Shown here: piece after piece, positions 14,165 to 38,759 of the stretch | How positions within the stretch are numbered: the stretch's first letter is position 1 | Layout: every line of letters starts with the position of its first letter | Origin: Candidatus Eiseniibacteriota bacterium | Lineage (GTDB): Bacteria; Eisenbacteria; RBG-16-71-46; CAVPCR01 | NCBI GenBank assembly: GCA_963823555.1 | Contig: CAWGMA010000001.1 | Location: 1,248,001 to 1,312,000 of the forward strand | DNA: 64,000 bases | Reading direction: 5' to 3' | Notes under the pieces: generated by a model | The model's input: only the letters and a program-made list of their open reading frames with translations | The model's database searches: none | Told to the model about the DNA's origin: nothing | Program-made: the position numbers and the translations under genes

Positions 14165-17354
<3,190 letters not shown>

Positions 17355-26418: not shown

Positions 26419-28037
26419 TCACTCGCCGCCGCCCGTGAAGCCCTTGATGACTTCAGCCACCTGCCAGACGGTGTCGATCACCGTGCCGTCGACCCACTTG
26501 ACGACGGCCACCGGCCGCTCGGTGACACGCGCCCGGCGCGGCTTGCCGCCGCAGAGCCGCTCGACCTCGGCCTGGATCTCCTCGATCGGCCGGATCGGCA
26601 GATCCGAGCCCTTGACGCGCGTCGAGCAGATCCCCGCGCCGCGGGTTGATGGCGATGCCGCGCTCGGTGACCACGACGTCGATCAGCTCCCCGGGCCCGG
26701 TGAGGGTCGTCACCTCGTCGACGATCACCGGGATCCGGTCGCGGAACGAGGGCACGGCGAGGATCGTGCAGCCGGCGAAGAGGCAGTTCTGCCAGCCGCC
26801 GATGCCGTGCAGCAGGCGGCCGTCGGAGTGGGTGACGACGTTGGCGTTGAAGTCGACGTCGACCTCGGTGGCGCCGAGAACAGCGACATCGACCATGCGA
26901 GGCGAAGTTGCCCTTGCCGTGGTAGTTGTAGGAGGTGAAGGGGGAGGTGGCGACGTGGCGCGGGTTCTCGGCGATCGAGCGCACGGCGTCGAGGTCGAAG
27001 GTCTGACCGTCGAGGATGTAGTCGGTCAGGCCCTCGCGCAGCATCTCGACCAGGTAGCGGGTCGAGCCGCCGCGCACGAAGCCGGCGCTTGCACCCCGCC
27101 CTCGCGCATCATCTCGGCCAGGAAGGCGACGAAGGCCAGCGCGATGCCGCCGGCGCCGGCCTGGAACGAGAAGCCGTCGCGCATGATCCCGGCGTCGCGG
27201 ATGAAGCGTGCCACGAGCTCGGCGATCAGCAGGCGATCGGGGCTCGTGTGATCTGCGTCGTGCCGGAGACGATCTTCGCCGGGTCGCCGATCGAGTCCAC
27301 CTCGACCACGCAGTCGACGTTGTTGCCCTGGATCTGCCACGGGATGCAGGGGAACGGGACCAGGTTGTCGGTGACGACGATGACGTGGTCGGCGTAGATC
27401 GAGTCGGCCAGCGCGAAGCCCAGCGAGCCGCAGGCGGACGGCCCGTGGGAACCGTTGGCGTTGCCGAACGGGTCGGCGGTGGGCGCGGCGATGACCGCGA
27501 TGTCGATCTGGACCTCGCCGTCCTGGATCGCCTGCCAGCGGCCGCCGTGGGAGCGCAGCACGCCCAGCCCGCGCATCTTCGCCTGCGAGCAGTAGTCGCC
27601 GAGCGGGCCGTTCATGCTGCCCTCGATGTGGTGCACGACACCCCGCTCCATCAGCTCGATCACCGGCTCGTGGCAGGGGAACGAGGCGCTGGGGAACCAC
27701 ATGAGGTCCTGCACGCCCATCTCGGCCGCGGTCTCGCAGCACCTCGAGCGCGACCCGGTCGCCGTTGCGCAGGTGGTGGTGGATCGAGATGACCATGCCG
27801 TCGCGCAGGCCGCACTTCTCGAGGGCGGTCGCGGAGGCTCGCGACCCGCTTGTCGCCGTTCGCCGGGTAGTCCGTGGCGCGAGCGATCGGCGGCGCGGCC
27901 TTGCTGGCCGGTAGCGGGGTGCTTGCCGACCCCGGCAAACGGAGCTTGCGGCTTCCCGTTGACGACCGTGGGAACCAGACGGCCGGCGCGTTCCGTGCGA
28001 GGTCCGTCTGGGCGGGAGTCGGAGCTGTCCTCGTCAT
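26419..28037 (-). CDS. citF: citrate lyase alpha subunit / citrate CoA-transferase-like (frameshifted in this sequence)
   Basis: Pieces across frames: DGMVISIHHHLRNGD, LRSHGGRWQAI, D.FGNANG..GPSACGSLG, IGDPAKIVSGTT, FSFQAGAGG, LGATEVDVDFNANV, IDVVVTERGIAINPRR, DGTVIDTVWQV. Confidence 0.88.
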
Positions 28038-29284
28038 CGCGCTTCCTCCGCAGCGGCCGCCGCCGGGATGAGGCCCATGGCCCGCGCCTCGGCCGCGAGC
28101 TTCCGGGCCCGCTGCGACCACCGGCGGATCGATCATCTTCGACCCGAGGCTCACCACGCCGAGACCGCGCCGCCTCGGCCTCCTCGAAGGCGGCGACGAT
28201 GCGCCAGCGCCTTCTCGATCTCCGCCGCGCGGCGGGGCGAAGGCCTCGTGGATGACCGGGATCTGGCGCGGGTGGACGCAGCCCATGCCCTCGAAGCCAA
28301 GCGCGCGCGAGCGCTCGCCCAGGCGCCGCAGGCCCGTCGAGGTCGTCGACGTCGCCGTAGACCGAGTCGATGGCCTGCACGCCGGCCGCCCGCGCCGCGT
28401 TGACCAGCCGCAGCCGCGCGCAGAGCGACTCTCGGCTCCCTCGCCGGTCTTCACGCACGCCGAGGTCGGCGGTGTAGTCCTCGAGGCCGATGGTCAGCGC
28501 GCACACGCGCGGGCGAGGCCGCGGCGATCTCGAAGGCGTTCTCGATGCCGAGGGCGGACTCGAGGATCGGCATGAGCCAGACCGGCCGGTCGCTGCCGTG
28601 CCGGGCCTGGATCGCGGCGATCGTCGCGATCGACCTCGCGGACCTGCTCGGCGCGTCTCGACCTTGGGGATCAGGATCAGGTCGGGGCTCTCGGGGACGA
28701 TCTGCGTCCAGATCCTCGAGCCCGAGCGGCAGCTGGTTGATCCGCACCATCCGCTCGGCGCCTCCGAAGTCGACGGCGCGCAGCGCGTTGCGCACCAGCG
28801 AGCCGGGCCGCGTCCTTCTCGTCGGGGTGCACCGAGTCCTCGAGGTCGAGGATGACGCCGTCGGCGCCGGTGGAGCCCGGCGTTGACCATGAACTTGGGC
28901 TCGTTGCCCGGGCAGGTAGAGCCGCGAGCGGCGGAGGCGATCCCGCGCCGACGCCGGTGGCGGCGCCACGAGGCGCTCGGGCCGGGCATCGCCGTCGTGC
29001 GACGCCGGCTCGCCGCGCCGCCGCCTCGACCCGCGCCGCGATCACGAACGGCAGCGCGCCGGGTCTCGATCTCGACCCGCGCGTGTCCGCACGCCAAGGC
29101 GTCCCAGGACGTCCTGGCACCTGCGCGCGGATCGCCTCGCCGTAGTAGGGCTCGACCTGCGACTCGAGGTCGAGCTCGAGCCCGCCGCCGTCCGCGCGGC
29201 TCGACCGCGACCCAGAGGTCGGAGCGGACCTCGTCCCCCCGGCGGCCCGCGGTGCCGCGCCCCGCCCGGCCCGTTCTCGTTCAT
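28034..29284 (-). CDS. citE: fusion of citrate lyase ACP-like (CitD) and citryl-CoA lyase-like (CitE) domains (frameshifted)
   Basis: N-part AGRRGDEVRSDLWV...LES.V.PYYGEAI...GALPFVIAARVEAA; C-part LRRSRLYLPGN.PKFMVNA, DGVILDLEDSV, MVRIN, LIPKVE, ILESALG, IGLEDYTAD, GCVHPRQI, KMIDPPV. Confidence 0.82.
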
Positions 29285-29306
29285 CGTATTCACGGCGTCG
29301 CTCCGC

Positions 29307-30507
29307 TCAGCCAGCTGGGCGAGGATCGCGTCGGTCATCTGCATCGTGGTCGCCGCGCCCCGCTCGATGACATCCGGGCCGCCCGGCGAGCCGCATCATG
29401 TCGTAGGTGCGCACCTTGCCCTCGCCGACGACCGCGGCCGACCGCGTCGCGCACCCGCCGGGCCTTCGCCGTCCTCGCCGACGTGGTCGAGCAGCATCGC
29501 CGCGGAGAGGATCATGGCGATCGGGTTGACGATCGGCGGATCGAGCTTCGTCGTACTTCGGCGCCGAGCCGTGGGTCGGCTCGAAGACCGCCACCTCGTC
29601 GCCGATGTTGCCGGAGCAGGCGAAGCCGAGGCCGCCGACCAGTCCGGCGAAGGCGTCGGAGACGATGTCGCCGAACAGGTTGCCGGCCACGATCACGCCG
29701 TAGTCCTCGGGGTTCTTGGTCAGCCACATCATCTGCGCGTCGATGTTGGTGGACCAGAGCTGCGATCTCCGGGGAAGTCCTTCTGCGACCTCCTTCGCCA
29801 CCTCCTCCATCATGCCCGAGGTCTCGCGCAGCACGTTCGGCTTCTCGCAGACCGTGACCGACTTGTAGCCGTGCTTGCTGGGCGTACTCGAACGCGGCGC
29901 GGACGATGCGCCGGCAGGCGCGCGCGGGTGAAGATCCGGGCGCTGATCGCCAGGTCCGCGCCCGGCGACCTGGGCGAAGGCCTTGAACTTCGGATGCGTC
30001 GCGAGGGCCTCGCGCACGGCCGGCGGCGGGTTGGTCCACTCGACGCCGGCGTACAGGCCCTCGGTGTTCTGGCGGAAGATCACGGCGTCGACCGGCGGCT
30101 CCTCGAAGCCGCCGTCGGCCGTGCGGCGGATGAAGTTCAGCGGGTTGCCCGGGAAGGAGCGGCAGGGCCGGATGCAGACGTCGAGGTTGAAGCGCTGGCG
30201 CATGCCGACGATGGGGCTGAAGTAGACGTAGACCCTTGTCCGCGGAGCTCGGGCTTGAGCTCGGCCGCCGCCTTGCTTCTTGGGCTTCGAGGTGATGGCA
30301 CCGAACAGGCCGAGCTTGTGCCCGGCCAGCAGCTCGACCGTGCGCTCGGGCAGCGCGTTGCCCTCGTTGATCCAGAACTCCCAGCCGATGTCGGCGTGGA
30401 CGTACTCGGCATCGAAGCCGACCGCGTCGAGCACGCGGATCGCCTCGGGCAGGACCACCTTGCCGATGCCGTCTCCGGGCATCGTCACGACGGTGTAGCT
30501 TGGCCAT
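29307..30507 (-). CDS. beta-decarboxylating dehydrogenase (homoisocitrate/isocitrate/isopropylmalate family; frameshifted, 3' end approximate)
   Basis: MPGDGIG, LFGAITS, YFSPIVGMRQ, FRQNTEGLY, NLFGDIVSD, GGLG, FEPTHGSAPKY, NPIAMILS. Confidence 0.88.
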
Positions 30508-30550
30508 GTCAGTTCTCCTGTGCTCTCGCGTCCGATTGCGATCGACGTCG

Positions 30551-32541
30551 TCAGGCCGAGCTCAGCCGTCGCTGACCAGGTTCTCCACGCCGCCGGCGAC
30601 GACCAGCGCCTGCGGCACCGCGCCCAGCGGCGGGAAGCGGAAACGTCTCGCCGCCGAAGCGTGATCGTGCCCGCGCGCGAAGTCGACCTCGATCTCGTCG
30701 CCCGGAATGACGGTCGTGTCGCCTCGGCGCCGCTCTCCGCCGCGAACAGCTCGCGCAGGCGGTCGCACGAGCTCCGGGCACTCGATGCAGGGGAACCCGT
30801 TGTTGAACGCGTTGCGCAGGTAGGTCTGCGAGAAGCTGCCGGCGATCGACCAGCGGGATCCCCTTGGCCTGCAGCGCGGTGACCGCCTGCTCGCGGCTCG
30901 AGCCGGTGCCGAAGTTGCAGCCGCCCGACGATCACGTCCCCGGCGCCGCGTCGCTGCGCGCGAACCCGGGGTCGTAGTTCTCCATGACCACCTCGGCCAT
31001 CATCTCGCGGCGTCATGTCCTCGCGGTAGGTGTAGTCCTTGCCGTAGATGCCGTCGGTGTTGAGGTTGTCCTGCGGCAGGAAGACGAGCCGGCCCGCTCA
31101 GCTGCTCGGGAAAGCCGGCGAGGATCTCGACGCGTCTCGTCGGACGCGGCCGGGCGTCGGCCGGATCGCTCGATGCGGCGCTCGAGCGGACGCGGTGCCG
31201 CGCCAGCGAGCTCGGCCGGGCCCGCGATGTAGCCGGCCACGGCCGACGCGGCGACGACCGCGGGGCTGGCCAGGTAGCACTGCGCGTCCCGCGATCCCAT
31301 GCGACCCTTGAAGTTGCGGTTGGTCGCCGAGATGCCGACCTCGCCCGGCTCGAGCAGGCCCGGTCGCCGAGGCCGATGCAGGGCCCGCAGCCCGGCGGCA
31401 GCGGTCGTGGCGCCGGCGTCGAGCAGCGCCTGCCAGGCCCCGCGCCGCTCGGCCTCCTCCTGGACGTCGCGGCTCGCCGCGGCGACGTAGAGCTCGACCC
31501 CGTCGGCGACCTTCTTGCCCCGCAGCACGCGCGGCCGCCGCCGCCGAGGTCCTCGACCCGCGAGTTGACGCAGGAGACGAGGTAGGCCTTGTGGATCGCG
31601 ATCTTCCGCGGCTCGATCTCGGCGAGCGGGGTGGCGTCACCTGCACCGTGTCGGGGCCCGAGACGTGCGGCGTGACCGCCGCGAGATCGAGCGCGATCCG
31701 CGCGGCGTAGCTCGGCATCGGCGTCCGGGCGCCGGCGGGTTCTCGGCCCAGGCCTCGAGGTCGCTCGTCCTGACGCGGTCGATCCCCGCTCGGCGAGGAC
31801 GCTCCCGGCGCTCGTCGCAGGTACGTCGAGCGTCGACCTCGTCGACCGGGAACCAGCCGACCAGCGCGCCCCACTCGGTGGTCATGTTGGCGATGGTCAG
31901 GCGCTCGTCCAGGGAGAGCGTCGCGACCCCGGGCCCGGCGAACTCGACCGCGGCGTTCAGCACCTCGCCCTGGTTGTAGAGCCCGCACAGGGCGAGGATC
32001 ACGTCCTTGCCGGTCGACCCCGGCCGGCAGCGCGCCCTCGAGCACGACCTGCACCGTGCGCGGGATCTGCCACCAGAACTCGCCGGTGGCCCAGATCGCC
32101 GCGGCGTCGGTGCGCACCACCGGCGTGCCCACCGCGCCCAGCGCCGCCGTACATGTTGGAGTGCGAGTCGGAGGCGACGACGAAGGCCCCGGGCACCACG
32201 TACCGCTGCTCGACCATGACCTGGTGGCCGATGCCCGGTCCCGGCCGGATAGAAGTCGACGCCCTGCTCGCGGGCGAACGCCTCGATCGCGCGGTACTTG
32301 GCCAGGTTCTCCTCGGAGCGGTTCTGGATGTCGTGGTCCAGGGCGAAGACCGGCTGCCGCGGGTCGTGGATCCGCGTGCGCGCCGATCGCCTGGAACTTC
32401 TTCATCACCGGCGCCGTGTTGTCGTGGGTCATCACGTGGCGCGGCCGGATGGAGAGGAAGTCGCCGGCGCGCAGCGGCCGCGCTCGGCGGCCCCTCGGCC
32501 ATGTGCGCCTGGGCGATCTTCTCGACGACCGTCTGTCCCAT
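30551..32541 (-). CDS. single-chain homoaconitase-like [4Fe-4S] hydro-lyase (frameshifted)
   Basis: [96 protein letters not shown], fused swivel domain NTDGIYG...[11 protein letters not shown]. Confidence 0.85.
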
Positions 32542-32580
32542 CGTGCATCTCCCTCGGCCTCAGCCGCTCGGCTGCGCGAG

Positions 32581-34025
32581 TCAGCGTCCATCAGCGTCGC
32601 GTGATCGAGTCGCAGCTTCTCCAGGTTCCAGACCGCGTCCTTGACGCCTGCGCGCGCCGTCCGCGGCGAGCACCGGCTCGGCCAGGGCGTCGAACTTCTC
32701 CTCGATCTCCTCGTCGGTCAGCGGGTTGCGCGGGTCGCCCTTCGGGTAGTCGATCTGCTTGGTGAACTCGCGGCCGTCGTGGTCGTGATCGTGACGATCG
32801 ACCCGCTGCAGCTCGGGGAACACGCTTCTCGATCTCGGGATCGGCGACCACCTCGACCTTGTTCAGCTGGGCGCGGATCGTCGGGTCCATGATCTTCTCC
32901 GTCGGTGAACTGCAGCGGCGTGACCTGGCGGTCGGCGATCGCCGCGGCGATGCACGTAGGGCAGGCAGTGATCGGCGGTCTCCTTGGTGCGCGGATCGTA
33001 CTTGCGACGGGTCGGCCAGGATGTCCGCGGCGCGGGCCAGCGAGCGGATGTGGACCTTCTCGACCTGCTCCGGCTGCGAGGTCGTTGCTCCTTGACCAGG
33101 TCGAGCACGGCGGAGATCGGCGCGTGGGTCAGCGCCTCGGTGGGGAAGGCCTTCATGCCGCACTGGGTGATGCGCCAGACTCTCGCCGAGCCCATCGGTC
33201 AGGATCTCGAGCTTCCACTCCGGGCCCGATGCAGTGGACCAGGCCCTCCTTGCCGTCGATGACGTGCTCGGGCCCGGTGTAGCCCTTCTCGGCCAGCAGC
33301 GCGGCCAGCACGCCGCTCTGGGTGGCCAGCGGGTCGACGGTGTTCTTCATCATGGTCAGCTTGCCCGCGGTGACCGCGCCGAGCGTGGCATGCGCGGCTG
33401 CCGGAGATGCCGATGGCGTGCTGGATCTGCTCCGCGGTCGAGGTCGAGCATGCGTGCCGGCGACGATCGGCGAGACGAAGCGCGGTCAGCGTGGCGTGGT
33501 GCCAGCCCCGCTCGCGGATGCCCGGGAAACGCCGCCTCGCACAGCCGCATCTCGAACTCGTGGCCGAGCACGATGCCGACGATCAGCTCCTTGCCGTCCT
33601 TGCCGCGCGCGCTCGCCGCAGGCCATCGCGGCCGGGATGATGTCCGAGGGGTGCGACGGATCCTGCTTCCAGTAGATGTCGTTGTAGTCCATCACCCGGA
33701 CCATCAGCGCGTTGAGCGAGCGAGGCCGAGACCGGGTCGATGCTTGCTGGCCGGTGCCGATGACGGTCGCCGGGCCCTGGCCGGCCGTTCTCGTCCAGCA
33801 CCTCGAGCGCGATCTTGACGTCGTGCTGCTGGTAGCCGCCGAGGGCGCAGCCCAGCGAGTCGAGCAGGTAGCGCTTGGCCTCGTGGACGGCGTCCGTCGG
33901 AGAGGTCGTCGAAGCTCGAGGCCGGCGGCCCAGCGGGACATGTCGCGCGGTGATCGTGTCGGGCTCCTGTCGTCCTTCGCGACCTCGCGGGATCGGTACG
34001 TCACGGTCCGCGTCTCCTCGATCAC
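32581..34025 (-). CDS. MmgE/PrpD family (2-methylcitrate dehydratase-like) protein (frameshifted, ends approximate)
   Basis: RYLLDSLGC, RVMDYND, SHPSDII, GWHH, MMKN, GYTGP..VIDGKEG, KAFPTEALTH, ETADHCLPY, PKGDPRNPL...IEEKF. Confidence 0.85.
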
Positions 34026-34565
34026 CGGTCGAGGTTCTTGAACGGCACGAAGCTCATGAAGTCGGCGTGGTGGACGATGAACGCCTCGGTGCTGCGCTTG
34101 ACCAGTTCGCCCTCGCCGGCGTGGGTGGCGATGATGTGGCAGACCTCGTCGGGAACGCCGCAGGCCATCGCCAGGTGCGACGCCGGTGAACGGGTGGCGC
34201 AGCGCTCTTGCCGCGGTCGCTCTGCACGCGCCTTGCCGTCGACCTTCTCGTACTCGAGCAGCTTGCCGACGTCGGCCAGGATCGCGCCGGCGATCACCGT
34301 GTCCATGTCGATCGGCAGCGCGCGGCCGAGGAACTCCTGCATCGCCTCGGCCGACCGGCGCGCGATGTGCACGACGCAGCGCTTGTGCTCCATGAAGGTG
34401 GCCGGGCAGTCGGGGACGAGCAGCGTGAAGGGGATCCGTTGAGGTCGTCGGGCGTCAGCGGGCTCGCTCGAACGCCATGACCCAGGTCTCGAGCACTCGT
34501 TCGCGCAGCGTCTCGTTCTCGATCCAGGCCAGCTCGGGCCACAGCTCGTTGACCGCCTCGCGCAA
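34022..34565 (-). CDS. HD/HDIG-domain-like protein (frameshifted; HD motif reads AD)
   Basis: TTG start after AGGACGAGG; LWPEL.WI, IPFTLL, FMEHKRCVV, AGAILADVGKLLEY, RHPFTG, HIIATH, EAFIVHHAD. Confidence 0.78.
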
Positions 34566-37059: not shown

Positions 37060-37950
37060 ATGTTTGAAGGTGCCAGTGCCGCGATCGTGACGCCCTTCCG
37101 CCAAGGTGCCGTCGACTACGACGCCATGCGCGTTCTCGCGCGCCATCTCGTCACCTCGGGGCTCGATGGGATCATCGTCATCGGGTCGACGGGTGAGGGC
37201 GCCACGCTCGCGCCCGAGGAAAAGCGGCGAGCGATCGAGGTCGTCCTGGCCGAGGCCAAGGGCCGGGCCTTCGTCGTGGCCGGCACCGGAACCAACTCGA
37301 CCGAGCAGTCGGTCGAGCTCTCGCGCCTGGCCCGCGAGATCGGCGCCGACGGGGTGATGGTGGTGACTCCCTACTACAACAAGCCGACCCCCGAGGGGCT
37401 CTACCGCCATTACGAAGCCGTGGCGCGCGCGGCGCGGCTGCCGATCGTGGTCTACAACGTGCCCGGACGCACCGGACTCAACTTGAAGCCGGAGACGGCG
37501 GCTCGCCTCGCCCGGATCGATGGCGTCGTCGCCATCAAGGAAGCCGCCGGCTCCGTCGATCAGGTGAGCGAGCTCGTGGCACAGACCAACCTCACCGTGC
37601 TCGCCGGAGACGATTCCCTCACCTTGCCGATGATGGCGGTGGGAGCCCGCGGCATCGTGTCCGTGGTGGCCAACGTCGCTCCGGCCGAGGTCAAGGCGCT
37701 GGTCGACGCCGCGGCGCGGAGCGATCTGTCACACGCTCGCGAGTTGCACGCCCGGCTCTATCCGCTCACCAAGGCGATGTTCCTCGAAACCAATCCGGGC
37801 CCGGTCAAGCATGCGCTGCATCTGCTCGGGCTCATCGCCGAAGAGCTTCGCCTCCCGCTCGTGCCGGTCACCGCGCCCACCGGGCGCGCCGTCGAGGAAG
37901 CCCTCCGCGCCTTCGGTCTCACGATCGGCGCCCATGCCGGGGTGCGCTGA
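37060..37950 (+). CDS. dapA: 4-hydroxy-tetrahydrodipicolinate synthase
   Basis: AIVTPF, GSTGEG, GTGTNST, PYYNKP, YNVPGRTG, AIKEA, ETNPGPVK, LRLPL. Confidence 0.96.
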   Translation: MFEGASAAIVTPFRQGAVDYDAMRVLARHLVTSGLDGIIVIGSTGEGATLAPEEKRRAIEVVLAEAKGRAFVVAGTGTNSTEQSVELSRLAREIGADGVMVVTPYYNKPTPEGLYRHYEAVARAARLPIVVYNVPGRTGLNLKPETAARLARIDGVVAIKEAAGSVDQVSELVAQTNLTVLAGDDSLTLPMMAVGARGIVSVVANVAPAEVKALVDAAARSDLSHARELHARLYPLTKAMFLETNPGPVKHALHLLGLIAEELRLPLVPVTAPTGRAVEEALRAFGLTIGAHAGVR

Positions 37951-38759
37951 TGGCCGGCAAGATCAACGTCGTCATCGCCGGCGCGACCGGCCGCATGGGA
38001 GAACCCGTTGCTCGCGCCGTGATGGCCGACGATCGCTTCGCGCTGGCTGGCATCCTCGTGCACGCGGATGATCCCGCGCGGGGATCGTCACCGCTGCCCG
38101 GTGGGCCGGCGGCCATGGTCGATCCCGATCTTGTGCTCGAGCGCGGTCAGGTGCTCATCGAATTCACCACACCGGAGGCCACGGCCGGGCTGGCGCGAGC
38201 CGCGGCGAGCGCGGGTGCGGCCATCGTGAGTGGCACGACGGGGCTGGGCAACGAGGCCGAGTCGGCGCTCGCGGCCGCCGCCCGCACCGTGGCCGTCGTG
38301 CATGCGCCCAATATGAGCCGCGGGATCGCGCTCCTCACCGCGCTCGCGGTGCGCGCGGTCTCCAATCTGGCCGATTTCGATCTCGAGATCGAAGAACGCC
38401 ATCACCGCGGCAAGGCCGATGCTCCCAGCGGGACGGCGCTCGCGCTGGCGCGGGCCCTGGCGGGCGCGCGCGGCACCGGCCCCGAGGTCTACCGGCACGG
38501 CCGCTCGGGACGGGGCCAGAGAACCCCGAAGGAGATCGGCCTCCATGCCCTCCGTGGTGGGGACTGGGTGGGGGAGCACGCGATCATCCTCGCCGGTCCC
38601 GGAGAGACGATCGAGCTTCGCCACCGCGCGGAGAGCCGGATGGCCTTCGTGCGCGGTGCGCTGGCCGCCGCGGCCTTCGCCGCCGGCGCGACACCCGGGC
38701 TCTACAGCATGGTCGATGTGCTGGACGAGAGCGCAAAGGGGCCGAACTCCGGGACCTGA
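37950..38759 (+). CDS. dapB: 4-hydroxy-tetrahydrodipicolinate reductase
   Basis: GATGRMG, EFTTP, SGTTG, APNMS.G, ERHHRGKADAPSGTA, RGG..VGEH. Confidence 0.95.
   Translation: MAGKINVVIAGATGRMGEPVARAVMADDRFALAGILVHADDPARGSSPLPGGPAAMVDPDLVLERGQVLIEFTTPEATAGLARAAASAGAAIVSGTTGLGNEAESALAAAARTVAVVHAPNMSRGIALLTALAVRAVSNLADFDLEIEERHHRGKADAPSGTALALARALAGARGTGPEVYRHGRSGRGQRTPKEIGLHALRGGDWVGEHAIILAGPGETIELRHRAESRMAFVRGALAAAAFAAGATPGLYSMVDVLDESAKGPNSGT

Follow-up and report, generated by a model that had tools for sequence, protein, structure and literature searches.

A six-gene operon on the minus strand of a 64,000-nucleotide stretch of DNA from a Candidatus Eiseniibacteriota bacterium (contig CAWGMA010000001.1; the whole stretch is called the window here) appears to encode a real, widespread and apparently undescribed pathway built from known enzyme families. 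The reading that we favor, with a probability of about 0.55, is a coenzyme A (CoA)-dependent cleavage of (S)-homocitrate fed by lysine, in which 2-oxoadipate, CO2 and NADPH would be converted to 2-oxoglutarate and acetate. Homocitrate-type chemistry in either direction is more probable than this one direction of it, and can be called likely. The pathway is most like a reversed homocitrate pathway with a last step resembling that of citrate lyase, and its genes fall outside what defines citrate lyase, PrpD or LysW-type lysine synthesis.

The six genes are co-oriented and closely spaced or overlapping, as the preliminary description of this DNA had noted, and begin at a probable TTG at 34565 and end with the stop codon of CitF at 26419. 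The CitDE stop and the CitF start share the sequence ATGA. In operon order the genes are:

34022..34565, minus strand: HD-domain protein of about 177 amino acids (PF01966 and TIGR00277; YhaM-like fold; dyad AD; start codon inferred)
32560..34004, minus strand: MmgE/PrpD-family protein, proposed (S)-homocitrate dehydratase (PF03972 and PF19305; frameshifted, ends approximate)
30551..32541, minus strand: single-chain Lys4-type homoaconitase (TIGR00139 over cut-off; frameshifted, 3' end approximate)
29307..30507, minus strand: decarboxylating dehydrogenase in a subfamily of its own (substrate motif like that of fungal HICDH, cofactor motifs of NADP-like type; frameshifted)
28034..29293, minus strand: CitD-like domain fused to a CitE-family C-C lyase (PF06857 and PF03328; frameshifted, start approximate)
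26419..28037, minus strand: CitF-family CoA transferase (PF04223; TIGR01584 just under cut-off; frameshifted)

None of the six is a single open frame in the window. Families were read, and protein tests mainly made, on intact orthologs from the genome G028 (locus L016), which share 74-79% DNA identity with the window and belong to the HD (PF01966), MmgE/PrpD, homoaconitase, Iso_dh, acyl carrier protein (ACP) plus HpcH/CitE fusion, and CitF families. A scan of the operon strand for promoters and terminators found nothing.

A scan with the hydratase gave at least 577 matching places, of which the best 80 loci were kept. All six genes stand in the same order in 59 of these 80, a fraction that overstates conservation across the whole family since these are its closest members. 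Of the 21 incomplete loci, 16 are cut off where their contig stops and 5 are genuinely split or partial, and in all 80 the PrpD gene adjoins the hydratase gene. Their titles name Acidobacteriota, Gemmatimonadota, Ca. Eisenbacteria, Ca. Latescibacterota and Rhodothermales, and they span five phyla; many of the carriers are bacteria of soil and sediment. In the same-genus genome G001, xerC and dapA likewise flank the block, which there lacks the dehydrogenase. A chimeric assembly was rejected on the strength of this shared site and of the gene order conserved elsewhere; the synteny check proposed in the preliminary description has thus been run, and the operon stands as a conserved functional unit and not a chance string of genes. 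No seventh gene, transporter or regulator recurs beside it across phyla in the 80 loci, so the nearby dapA-dapB pair, which the preliminary description had weighed, carries no weight. In one Eisenbacteria family (L014:10883-14152, L015:5152-9222, L086:8857-9735, L026:762-1971) opposite-strand genes are inserted between PrpD and the hydratase, and a membrane-protein gene with no Pfam match precedes HD.

In the intact orthologs the hydratase is a single chain that scores 722 bits against a cut-off of 530 on the homoaconitase model TIGR00139, its Fe-S cysteines (Cys306, 366 and 369) are invariant in five aligned rows, and its fourth-best representative match among 1.8 billion proteins is a eukaryotic protein, from Amoeboaphelidium, at 53% identity. 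According to PMC3556520, the fungal enzymes Lys4 and LysF catalyze the step between homoaconitate and homoisocitrate, in both directions, but not the dehydration of homocitrate. In the dehydrogenase, the motif Y-x-S-P-I-V is present in 74/74 orthologs; in a direct comparison it is YFSPIV, against YSSPIV in the Schizosaccharomyces pombe homoisocitrate dehydrogenase (HICDH; 3ty3), while the Asn of isocitrate dehydrogenase (ICDH; S-x-N in 6lky) is absent. Since the homoaconitase cut-off is passed, a eukaryotic relative is Lys4-like and the HICDH motif comes without the ICDH Asn, the substrates would be C6 homo-compounds. The dehydrogenase itself stays below all equivalog cut-offs, reaching 259 of 540 bits at best. 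It also has HGSAPKY (74/74 orthologs) and T-Y-D (64/74), which we take to be NADP-type motifs and which agree with the Icd-like proteins of relatives and differ from the HGSAPDI type of Thermus HICDH; use of NADP is likely but not certain.

The operon is additional to central metabolism, because the window's genome (G000) encodes elsewhere two citrate synthases, a mitochondrial-type aconitase, an NADP-Icd and LeuBCD-like genes. Replacement of tricarboxylic acid (TCA) cycle or leucine genes was rejected on these grounds, and the idea that the operon stands in for TCA enzymes is not supported. Of the two options originally offered, a homocitrate route and a citrate branch, the homocitrate route is the better supported.

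The lyase end of the operon departs from canonical citrate lyase in several respects. Scores against the equivalog cut-offs are 478/501 bits for CitF (TIGR01584), 277/443 for CitE and 41/63.5 for CitD, so that none is reached, while the canonical CitD of G016 passes the citD cut-off. This genome serves as an internal control, with a canonical citrate lyase cluster alongside operon-type CitDE and CitF (L025:4508-9999). The operon CitF is 45% identical to the canonical CitF of G016 and about 70-80% identical to operon-type CitF. Ser14 of the G016 CitD, which we take to be the residue bearing the prosthetic group, aligns with an Arg in the window (29226-29224); this position is Ser in 0/64 orthologs and, under a strict pattern, Arg in 59. 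The G016 protein reads AG-TMQ-SSD and the fused domains AG-x5-[VI]-RSD, with the Arg on the first Ser. The residue after the Arg is a conserved Ser, and a shifted attachment site is possible by sequence alone. In CitE, a segment reading K-S-L-V-N in the canonical protein of G016 is M-G-C-[IV]-H in 59/64 orthologs. The gene citG was found in 1/23 carriers, namely G016, beside its separate canonical citC-citD-citE-citF-citG cluster, and citC in 1/5 carriers; tblastn with the G016 citC, citG or citX-like proteins gave no match in the window's genome, which is 92.5% complete.

The Arg at the Ser position, the scarcity of citG and the missed cut-offs argue that the operon lyase is not an ordinary citrate lyase, an explanation that the preliminary description had named as one that would undo its proposal. 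Most likely it works with free CoA esters, and the CitD-like domain probably carries no prosthetic group and has a structural role. Homologous alpha, beta and gamma parts and a transfer-then-cleave logic are shared with citrate lyase CitDEF with CitC, CitG and CitX (EC 4.1.3.6). The operon differs in its fused D and E parts, the Arg, the altered CitE segment relative to a canonical CitE of the same class, its linkage to hydratases and a dehydrogenase, and a genome in which citC and citG were not found. It is very improbable that the operon consists of a standard ACP-dependent citrate lyase next to TCA or leucine genes unrelated to it, or that it is an artifact of assembly. Automatic family labels do point to the former and the heavy frameshifting of the window copy to the latter; against both stand the order conserved in 59/80 loci, the replaced ACP Ser, the confinement of citG to the one carrier with a separate cluster, and the shared site in G001.

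The PrpD-family protein belongs to its superfamily and is far below the PrpD cut-offs (60-89 bits against 458-950; TIGR02330 60/458, PRK09425 81/575), and no prpB or prpC neighbor recurs beside the operon in the 80 loci. Its nearest solved sequences are iminodisuccinate (IDS) epimerase (7e-40) and Bacillus subtilis IRG1, with 2-methylcitrate dehydratases at 1e-15 to 2e-6. Of His99 and Tyr145, presumably the catalytic residues of IDS epimerase, the first is kept and the second aligns with Arg. The preliminary description held that PrpD supplies the half-reaction that Lys4 lacks. This is probably incomplete: according to PMC3556520, ordinary aconitases dehydrate homocitrate in fungi and Thermus, and the window's genome has an aconitase. 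In the same paper, PrpD is said to dehydrate (2S,3S)-methylcitrate, which is beyond the ability of aconitase, and another paper (PMC6689899) describes CitE-family and HMG-CoA-lyase-family enzymes as taking opposite enantiomers.

A stereochemical reason for PrpD fits the gene patterns better than a missing half-reaction would. PrpD is found in 80/80 loci of the Lys4 type and 0/87 loci of the other types described below. By genome, a PrpD-like protein is present in 22/22 other carriers (the PrpD of the window's own genome was missed in this count because it is broken by frameshifts) and in G009, and in 0/6 genomes with only the HMG-CoA-lyase type. In G009, which is 99% complete, a citryl-CoA-lyase-like gene occurs together with genes for a Lys4-type hydratase and PrpD, and HacA of the other type is lacking; G014 has a citryl-CoA-lyase-like gene with two HacAB pairs. 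By analogy, and given the handedness that homocitrate synthase produces, (S)-homocitryl-CoA would be the substrate of a CitE-type lyase, which would require a dedicated dehydratase, and the HMG-CoA-lyase type would act on the (R) form, handled by HacAB alone. That PrpD is missing where the lyase is of opposite handedness suggests a chiral substrate; citrate, which is not chiral, would need no matching of hydratase and lyase. A precedent is the 2-methylcitrate cycle (PrpC, PrpD, aconitase, PrpB), where a PrpD-family and an aconitase-family enzyme likewise share one isomerization for a stereochemical reason. The operon differs from it in a protein far below the PrpD cut-offs, in the lack of prpB and prpC within it, and in a pathway that ends in a decarboxylating dehydrogenase.

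The same dehydrogenase subfamily is found with other lyases. We examined 87 dehydrogenase loci, 80 from a metagenome scan seeded with this subfamily and 7 hand-picked from relatives; the sister dehydrogenases share 53-56% identity and the same motifs. Thirty loci hold a complete set of HMG-CoA-lyase-like protein, CoA-transferase III and HacAB, and three (plus G002) a pair of SucCD-like ligase and citryl-CoA-lyase-like protein; in 27 the dehydrogenase stands alone, many of these on short contigs. An enzyme of the ICL/PEP-mutase family accompanies the dehydrogenase in five loci. PrpD, CitDE or CitF occur in none of the 87, and no synthase over its cut-off was found at any dehydrogenase locus. 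That a tertiary hydroxy acid would be split in four unrelated ways, with no synthase present, suggests that cleavage is the selected function. In a quick tree the ligase-lyase and ICL types each appear at more than one place; its G000 Icd outgroup row is misframed and its outgroups lie on long branches, so we claim no root or order of events from it. These modules recall citrate cleavage in the reverse TCA cycle (citryl-CoA synthetase and citryl-CoA lyase) and CoA-dependent citramalate cleavage, where a CoA ester also undergoes retro-Claisen cleavage downstream of reductive carboxylation, and sister loci carry such module types. The operon differs in that its markers point to the C6 homologs and its carriers keep a separate ordinary TCA set.

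Several further arrangements were seen. G001 has both a six-gene type without dehydrogenase (L013, G001:C2:82150-89113) and, 27 kb off, a complete five-gene HMG-CoA-lyase type with one (L072, G001:C2:116296-121400), and this one dehydrogenase may serve both modules. A fifth arrangement, in G014, is a single run of a citryl-CoA-lyase-like gene, HD, two HacAB pairs that differ from each other, the dehydrogenase and PPDK (L255:459-9452); PPDK also follows the dehydrogenase in L257 and L258. At L220:8001-15944 the dehydrogenase, an ICL-family enzyme and HacAB are followed, on the other strand, by an opine-dehydrogenase-family gene and a B12-binding protein. Elsewhere in the window's genome, a DRE-TIM synthase-like protein (L035:1228-2700, G000:C1, about 486 kb; also L037) has near-equal sub-cut-off scores on isopropylmalate, citramalate and homocitrate synthase models.

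A link to lysine comes from co-occurrence. In an even sample of Terriglobales, 14 of 111 genomes carry the dehydrogenase; 7 of the 111, all non-carriers, are flagged as unpublished and underlie in part this and the other counts based on the sample. A member of the saccharopine-dehydrogenase family PF16653 is present in 7/14 Terriglobales carriers against 1/25 non-carriers, and in the window's class in 19/21 against 12/20. The best PDB match of the Terriglobales member is 3ABI, which is named lysine 6-dehydrogenase in PMC10413350. A search for lysine-6-dehydrogenase-like genes gave 7/14 carriers against 2/97 non-carriers (2/90 when the 7 unpublished genomes are left out). In two of the 80 loci this gene shares the operon's strand and is no more than 3 kb away, adjoining it in L139 and lying 3 kb upstream in L160. 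In the latter (L160:3752-7928) a trimethylamine-methyltransferase-family gene and a corrinoid protein stand between the two, possibly for demethylation of a methylated lysine derivative. Both a lysine-6-dehydrogenase-like gene and a lysine aminotransferase are present in the window's genome, where a search for sucA gave no match; across genomes, sucA showed no link as a correlate of the operon. Two candidates were not used as support: a semialdehyde dehydrogenase present in 14/14 carriers but also in 49/97 non-carriers, whose PDB matches name no substrate, and an aminotransferase beside it, which is AlaA-like.

A role in LysW-type lysine synthesis is unlikely, in line with the earlier remark that classical aminoadipate synthesis was not the obvious role. 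LysX over its cut-off was found in 0/80 genomes (lysW itself was not searched; two of the unpublished genomes are also in this 80-genome set, which underlies the LysX, lysine aminotransferase, citG and sucA counts), and no homocitrate synthase recurs in the 80 loci. For its own lysine synthesis the window's genome has dapA and dapB (window 37060-38759), and its sole lysA-like gene (L261:7440-8786, G000:C4) scores 121 bits against a cut-off of 298.

The route we propose would be a CoA-dependent, near-equilibrium module that reverses the first half of the aminoadipate pathway and shortens 2-oxoadipate, likely fed by lysine catabolism, by one carbon. We infer its substrate, handedness, cofactor and direction from the gene set and order, the families, the motifs and the co-occurrences. 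The dehydrogenase would convert 2-oxoadipate, CO2 and NADPH to homoisocitrate, which the Lys4-type enzyme would dehydrate to cis-homoaconitate. The PrpD-family enzyme would then hydrate this to (S)-homocitrate, the enantiomer of the intermediate in biosynthesis, CitF would transfer CoA to it from acetyl-CoA or another acyl-CoA, and the CitE domain would split the CoA ester into acetyl-CoA and 2-oxoglutarate. With the first half of the alpha-aminoadipate pathway of fungi and Thermus the operon shares a Lys4-type hydratase, a HICDH-like motif and an isomerization split over two enzymes (PMC3556520). It differs in having no synthase but a CoA transferase and a lyase, a PrpD-family enzyme in place of aconitase, NADP-like motifs, carriers without LysX, and a proposed enantiomer and direction that are both opposite. 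The fuller picture of a CO2-fixing lysine degradation, with NADPH-driven carboxylation of 2-oxoadipate, a dedicated (S)-homocitrate dehydratase, a cofactor-free homocitrate lyase descended from citrate lyase and cleavage by one of four convergent modules that share one dehydrogenase lineage and are each matched to the handedness of the hydratase, is tentative, and we place it at slightly under even odds. Literature searches, which covered few subscription journals, found no description of a homocitrate lyase, of homocitryl-CoA or of a set of homoaconitase, citrate lyase and PrpD, and nothing on HICDH with reductive carboxylation and 2-oxoadipate.

The HD protein accompanies the CitE and citryl-CoA-lyase types, and the other type at least once. 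Its window pieces are 73% identical to the G028 ortholog, and its AlphaFold model (pLDDT 94) has YhaM (9h3f, E 3e-5) as best fold match. Ala precedes the Asp in 69/72 orthologs, so the His-Asp dyad of HD phosphohydrolases is lacking. Our guess is that it repairs a lactone or CoA by-product.

A number of observations weigh against lysine-fed (S)-homocitrate cleavage. Reductive carboxylation is uphill without high CO2 and NADPH, and HGSAPKY also occurs in the LeuB-like protein of the window's genome, which keeps confidence in NADP moderate. IDS epimerase and IRG1 are nearer relatives of the PrpD-family protein than PrpD is. Its gene accompanies the Lys4-type hydratase no less than the lyase type, so that the two explanations for its presence are largely confounded. 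G014 and G002 (85% complete) have a citryl-CoA-lyase-like gene without this PrpD, and in G015 PrpD is present and no Lys4-type gene was found. The lysine-6-dehydrogenase-like query came from a carrier, related genomes are not independent, and among the closest genomes the counts are 7/14 against 0/6 (p = 0.05). Lysine aminotransferase shows no link with the operon (12/21 against 16/20 in the class, 0/39 Terriglobales). By these searches 7/14 Terriglobales carriers are without either lysine entry enzyme, which leaves room for other sources of 2-oxoadipate or for another substrate, and sucA in 13/14 Terriglobales carriers means that another 2-oxoadipate sink may exist. Finally, LysF is listed with 1-2 U/mg on citrate and isocitrate (PMC3556520, Table 1).

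Three alternatives deserve weight, each of them unlikely. The most probable of them is a C5/C6 citrate branch, in which 2-oxoglutarate and CO2 would yield isocitrate, then citrate, then acetate and oxaloacetate. It could serve redox-balanced breakdown of glutamate or part of a reverse TCA cycle, and a version of broad specificity could shorten both C6 and C5 acids. The near-miss of CitF at its cut-off, the citryl-CoA-lyase-like and SucCD-like partners in sister loci, the Icd-like NADP motifs, PPDK after related dehydrogenases in three genomes and the turnover of citrate and isocitrate by LysF (PMC3556520, Table 1) fit such a branch. However, citrate is not chiral and one aconitase would suffice, each of the five genomes tested has further genes of the aconitase and isocitrate dehydrogenase families and for citrate synthase, the dehydrogenase lacks the ICDH Asn, and the CitE segment is M-G-C-[IV]-H in place of K-S-L-V-N.

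Somewhat less probable, and about equally so, are a reversed direction and a different substrate. Run the other way, the same homocitrate chemistry would condense acetate or acetyl-CoA with 2-oxoglutarate, CitF conserving the thioester, and release 2-oxoadipate, CO2 and NADPH, the 2-oxoadipate being oxidized through glutaryl-CoA or used in some biosynthesis. All steps are reversible in principle and decarboxylation is downhill; in G013 and G026 a related dehydrogenase immediately follows the gene for a 2-oxoacid dehydrogenase E1, and the weak lysA-like match of the window's genome would also suit synthesis. The lack of any LysX over its cut-off in 80 genomes, the ADP-forming ligase or CoA-free ICL-family lyase of some sister operons, which are suited to cleavage, and the resemblance of the linked lysine gene to a catabolic dehydrogenase speak for the opposite. 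Alternatively, the substrate may be (S)-citramalate or another 2-alkylmalate, as in a route from 2-oxobutyrate and CO2 through 3-methylmalate, citraconate and citramalate to pyruvate and acetyl-CoA. The pair of CoA-transferase III and HMG-CoA-lyase-like protein resembles the (R)-citramalate enzymes of Chloroflexus, PPDK neighbors point to pyruvate, and the argument from handedness holds here just as well. Lyases of the CitE family that act on (S)-citramalyl-CoA are known (PMC6689899). Such a route is at odds with a hydratase of Lys4 and not LeuCD type, the HICDH match of the dehydrogenase motif, the separate LeuBCD-like genes of the window's genome and the co-occurring lysine-dehydrogenase-like gene.

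Compared with the intact L086, the window's copy of the operon shows 139 gaps of a length not divisible by 3 over about 7.8 kb; 113 of these are extra bases in the window and 26 are missing ones. As counted from blastn alignments, off-frame gaps number 7-26 per kb against the operon segments of six relatives, and 0-10 per kb, with one segment at 17.8, in relative-against-relative controls. The flanking genes topA, trmFO, xerC, argF and dapA each read as a long open frame, the operon holds 74-82% DNA identity to intact copies throughout with all six genes kept, and contigs of related organisms, none spanning the stretch, are without several of the single extra bases. Together these points suggest that the off-frame indels are probably assembly errors from a locally poor long-read consensus, with true decay of this copy as a possible alternative. 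The relatives' contigs fit errors; they do not show that the genes of this strain are intact. The best sequencing read run contained 0.14 of the words of the stretch. The secA gene (window 14241-17253) and the lysine aminotransferase gene (L260:7649-9247) are also split by frameshifts, which points to other error patches in the assembly.

If the proposed route is correct, abundant uncultured soil and sediment bacteria would fix CO2, rather than release it, at the 2-oxoadipate step of lysine degradation. The operon genes are likely to be misannotated automatically as citrate lyase, TCA or lysine-synthesis genes. The new activities would be an (S)-homocitrate dehydratase, a homocitryl-CoA lyase and an NADP-linked homoisocitrate dehydrogenase. 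The handedness rule is a sharp prediction that can be tested with a few purified enzymes. The operon may also be the bacterial setting from which the fungal Lys4 came, and it would provide a reversible, thioester-saving elongation of 2-oxoacid chains that is useful for adipate-type engineering.

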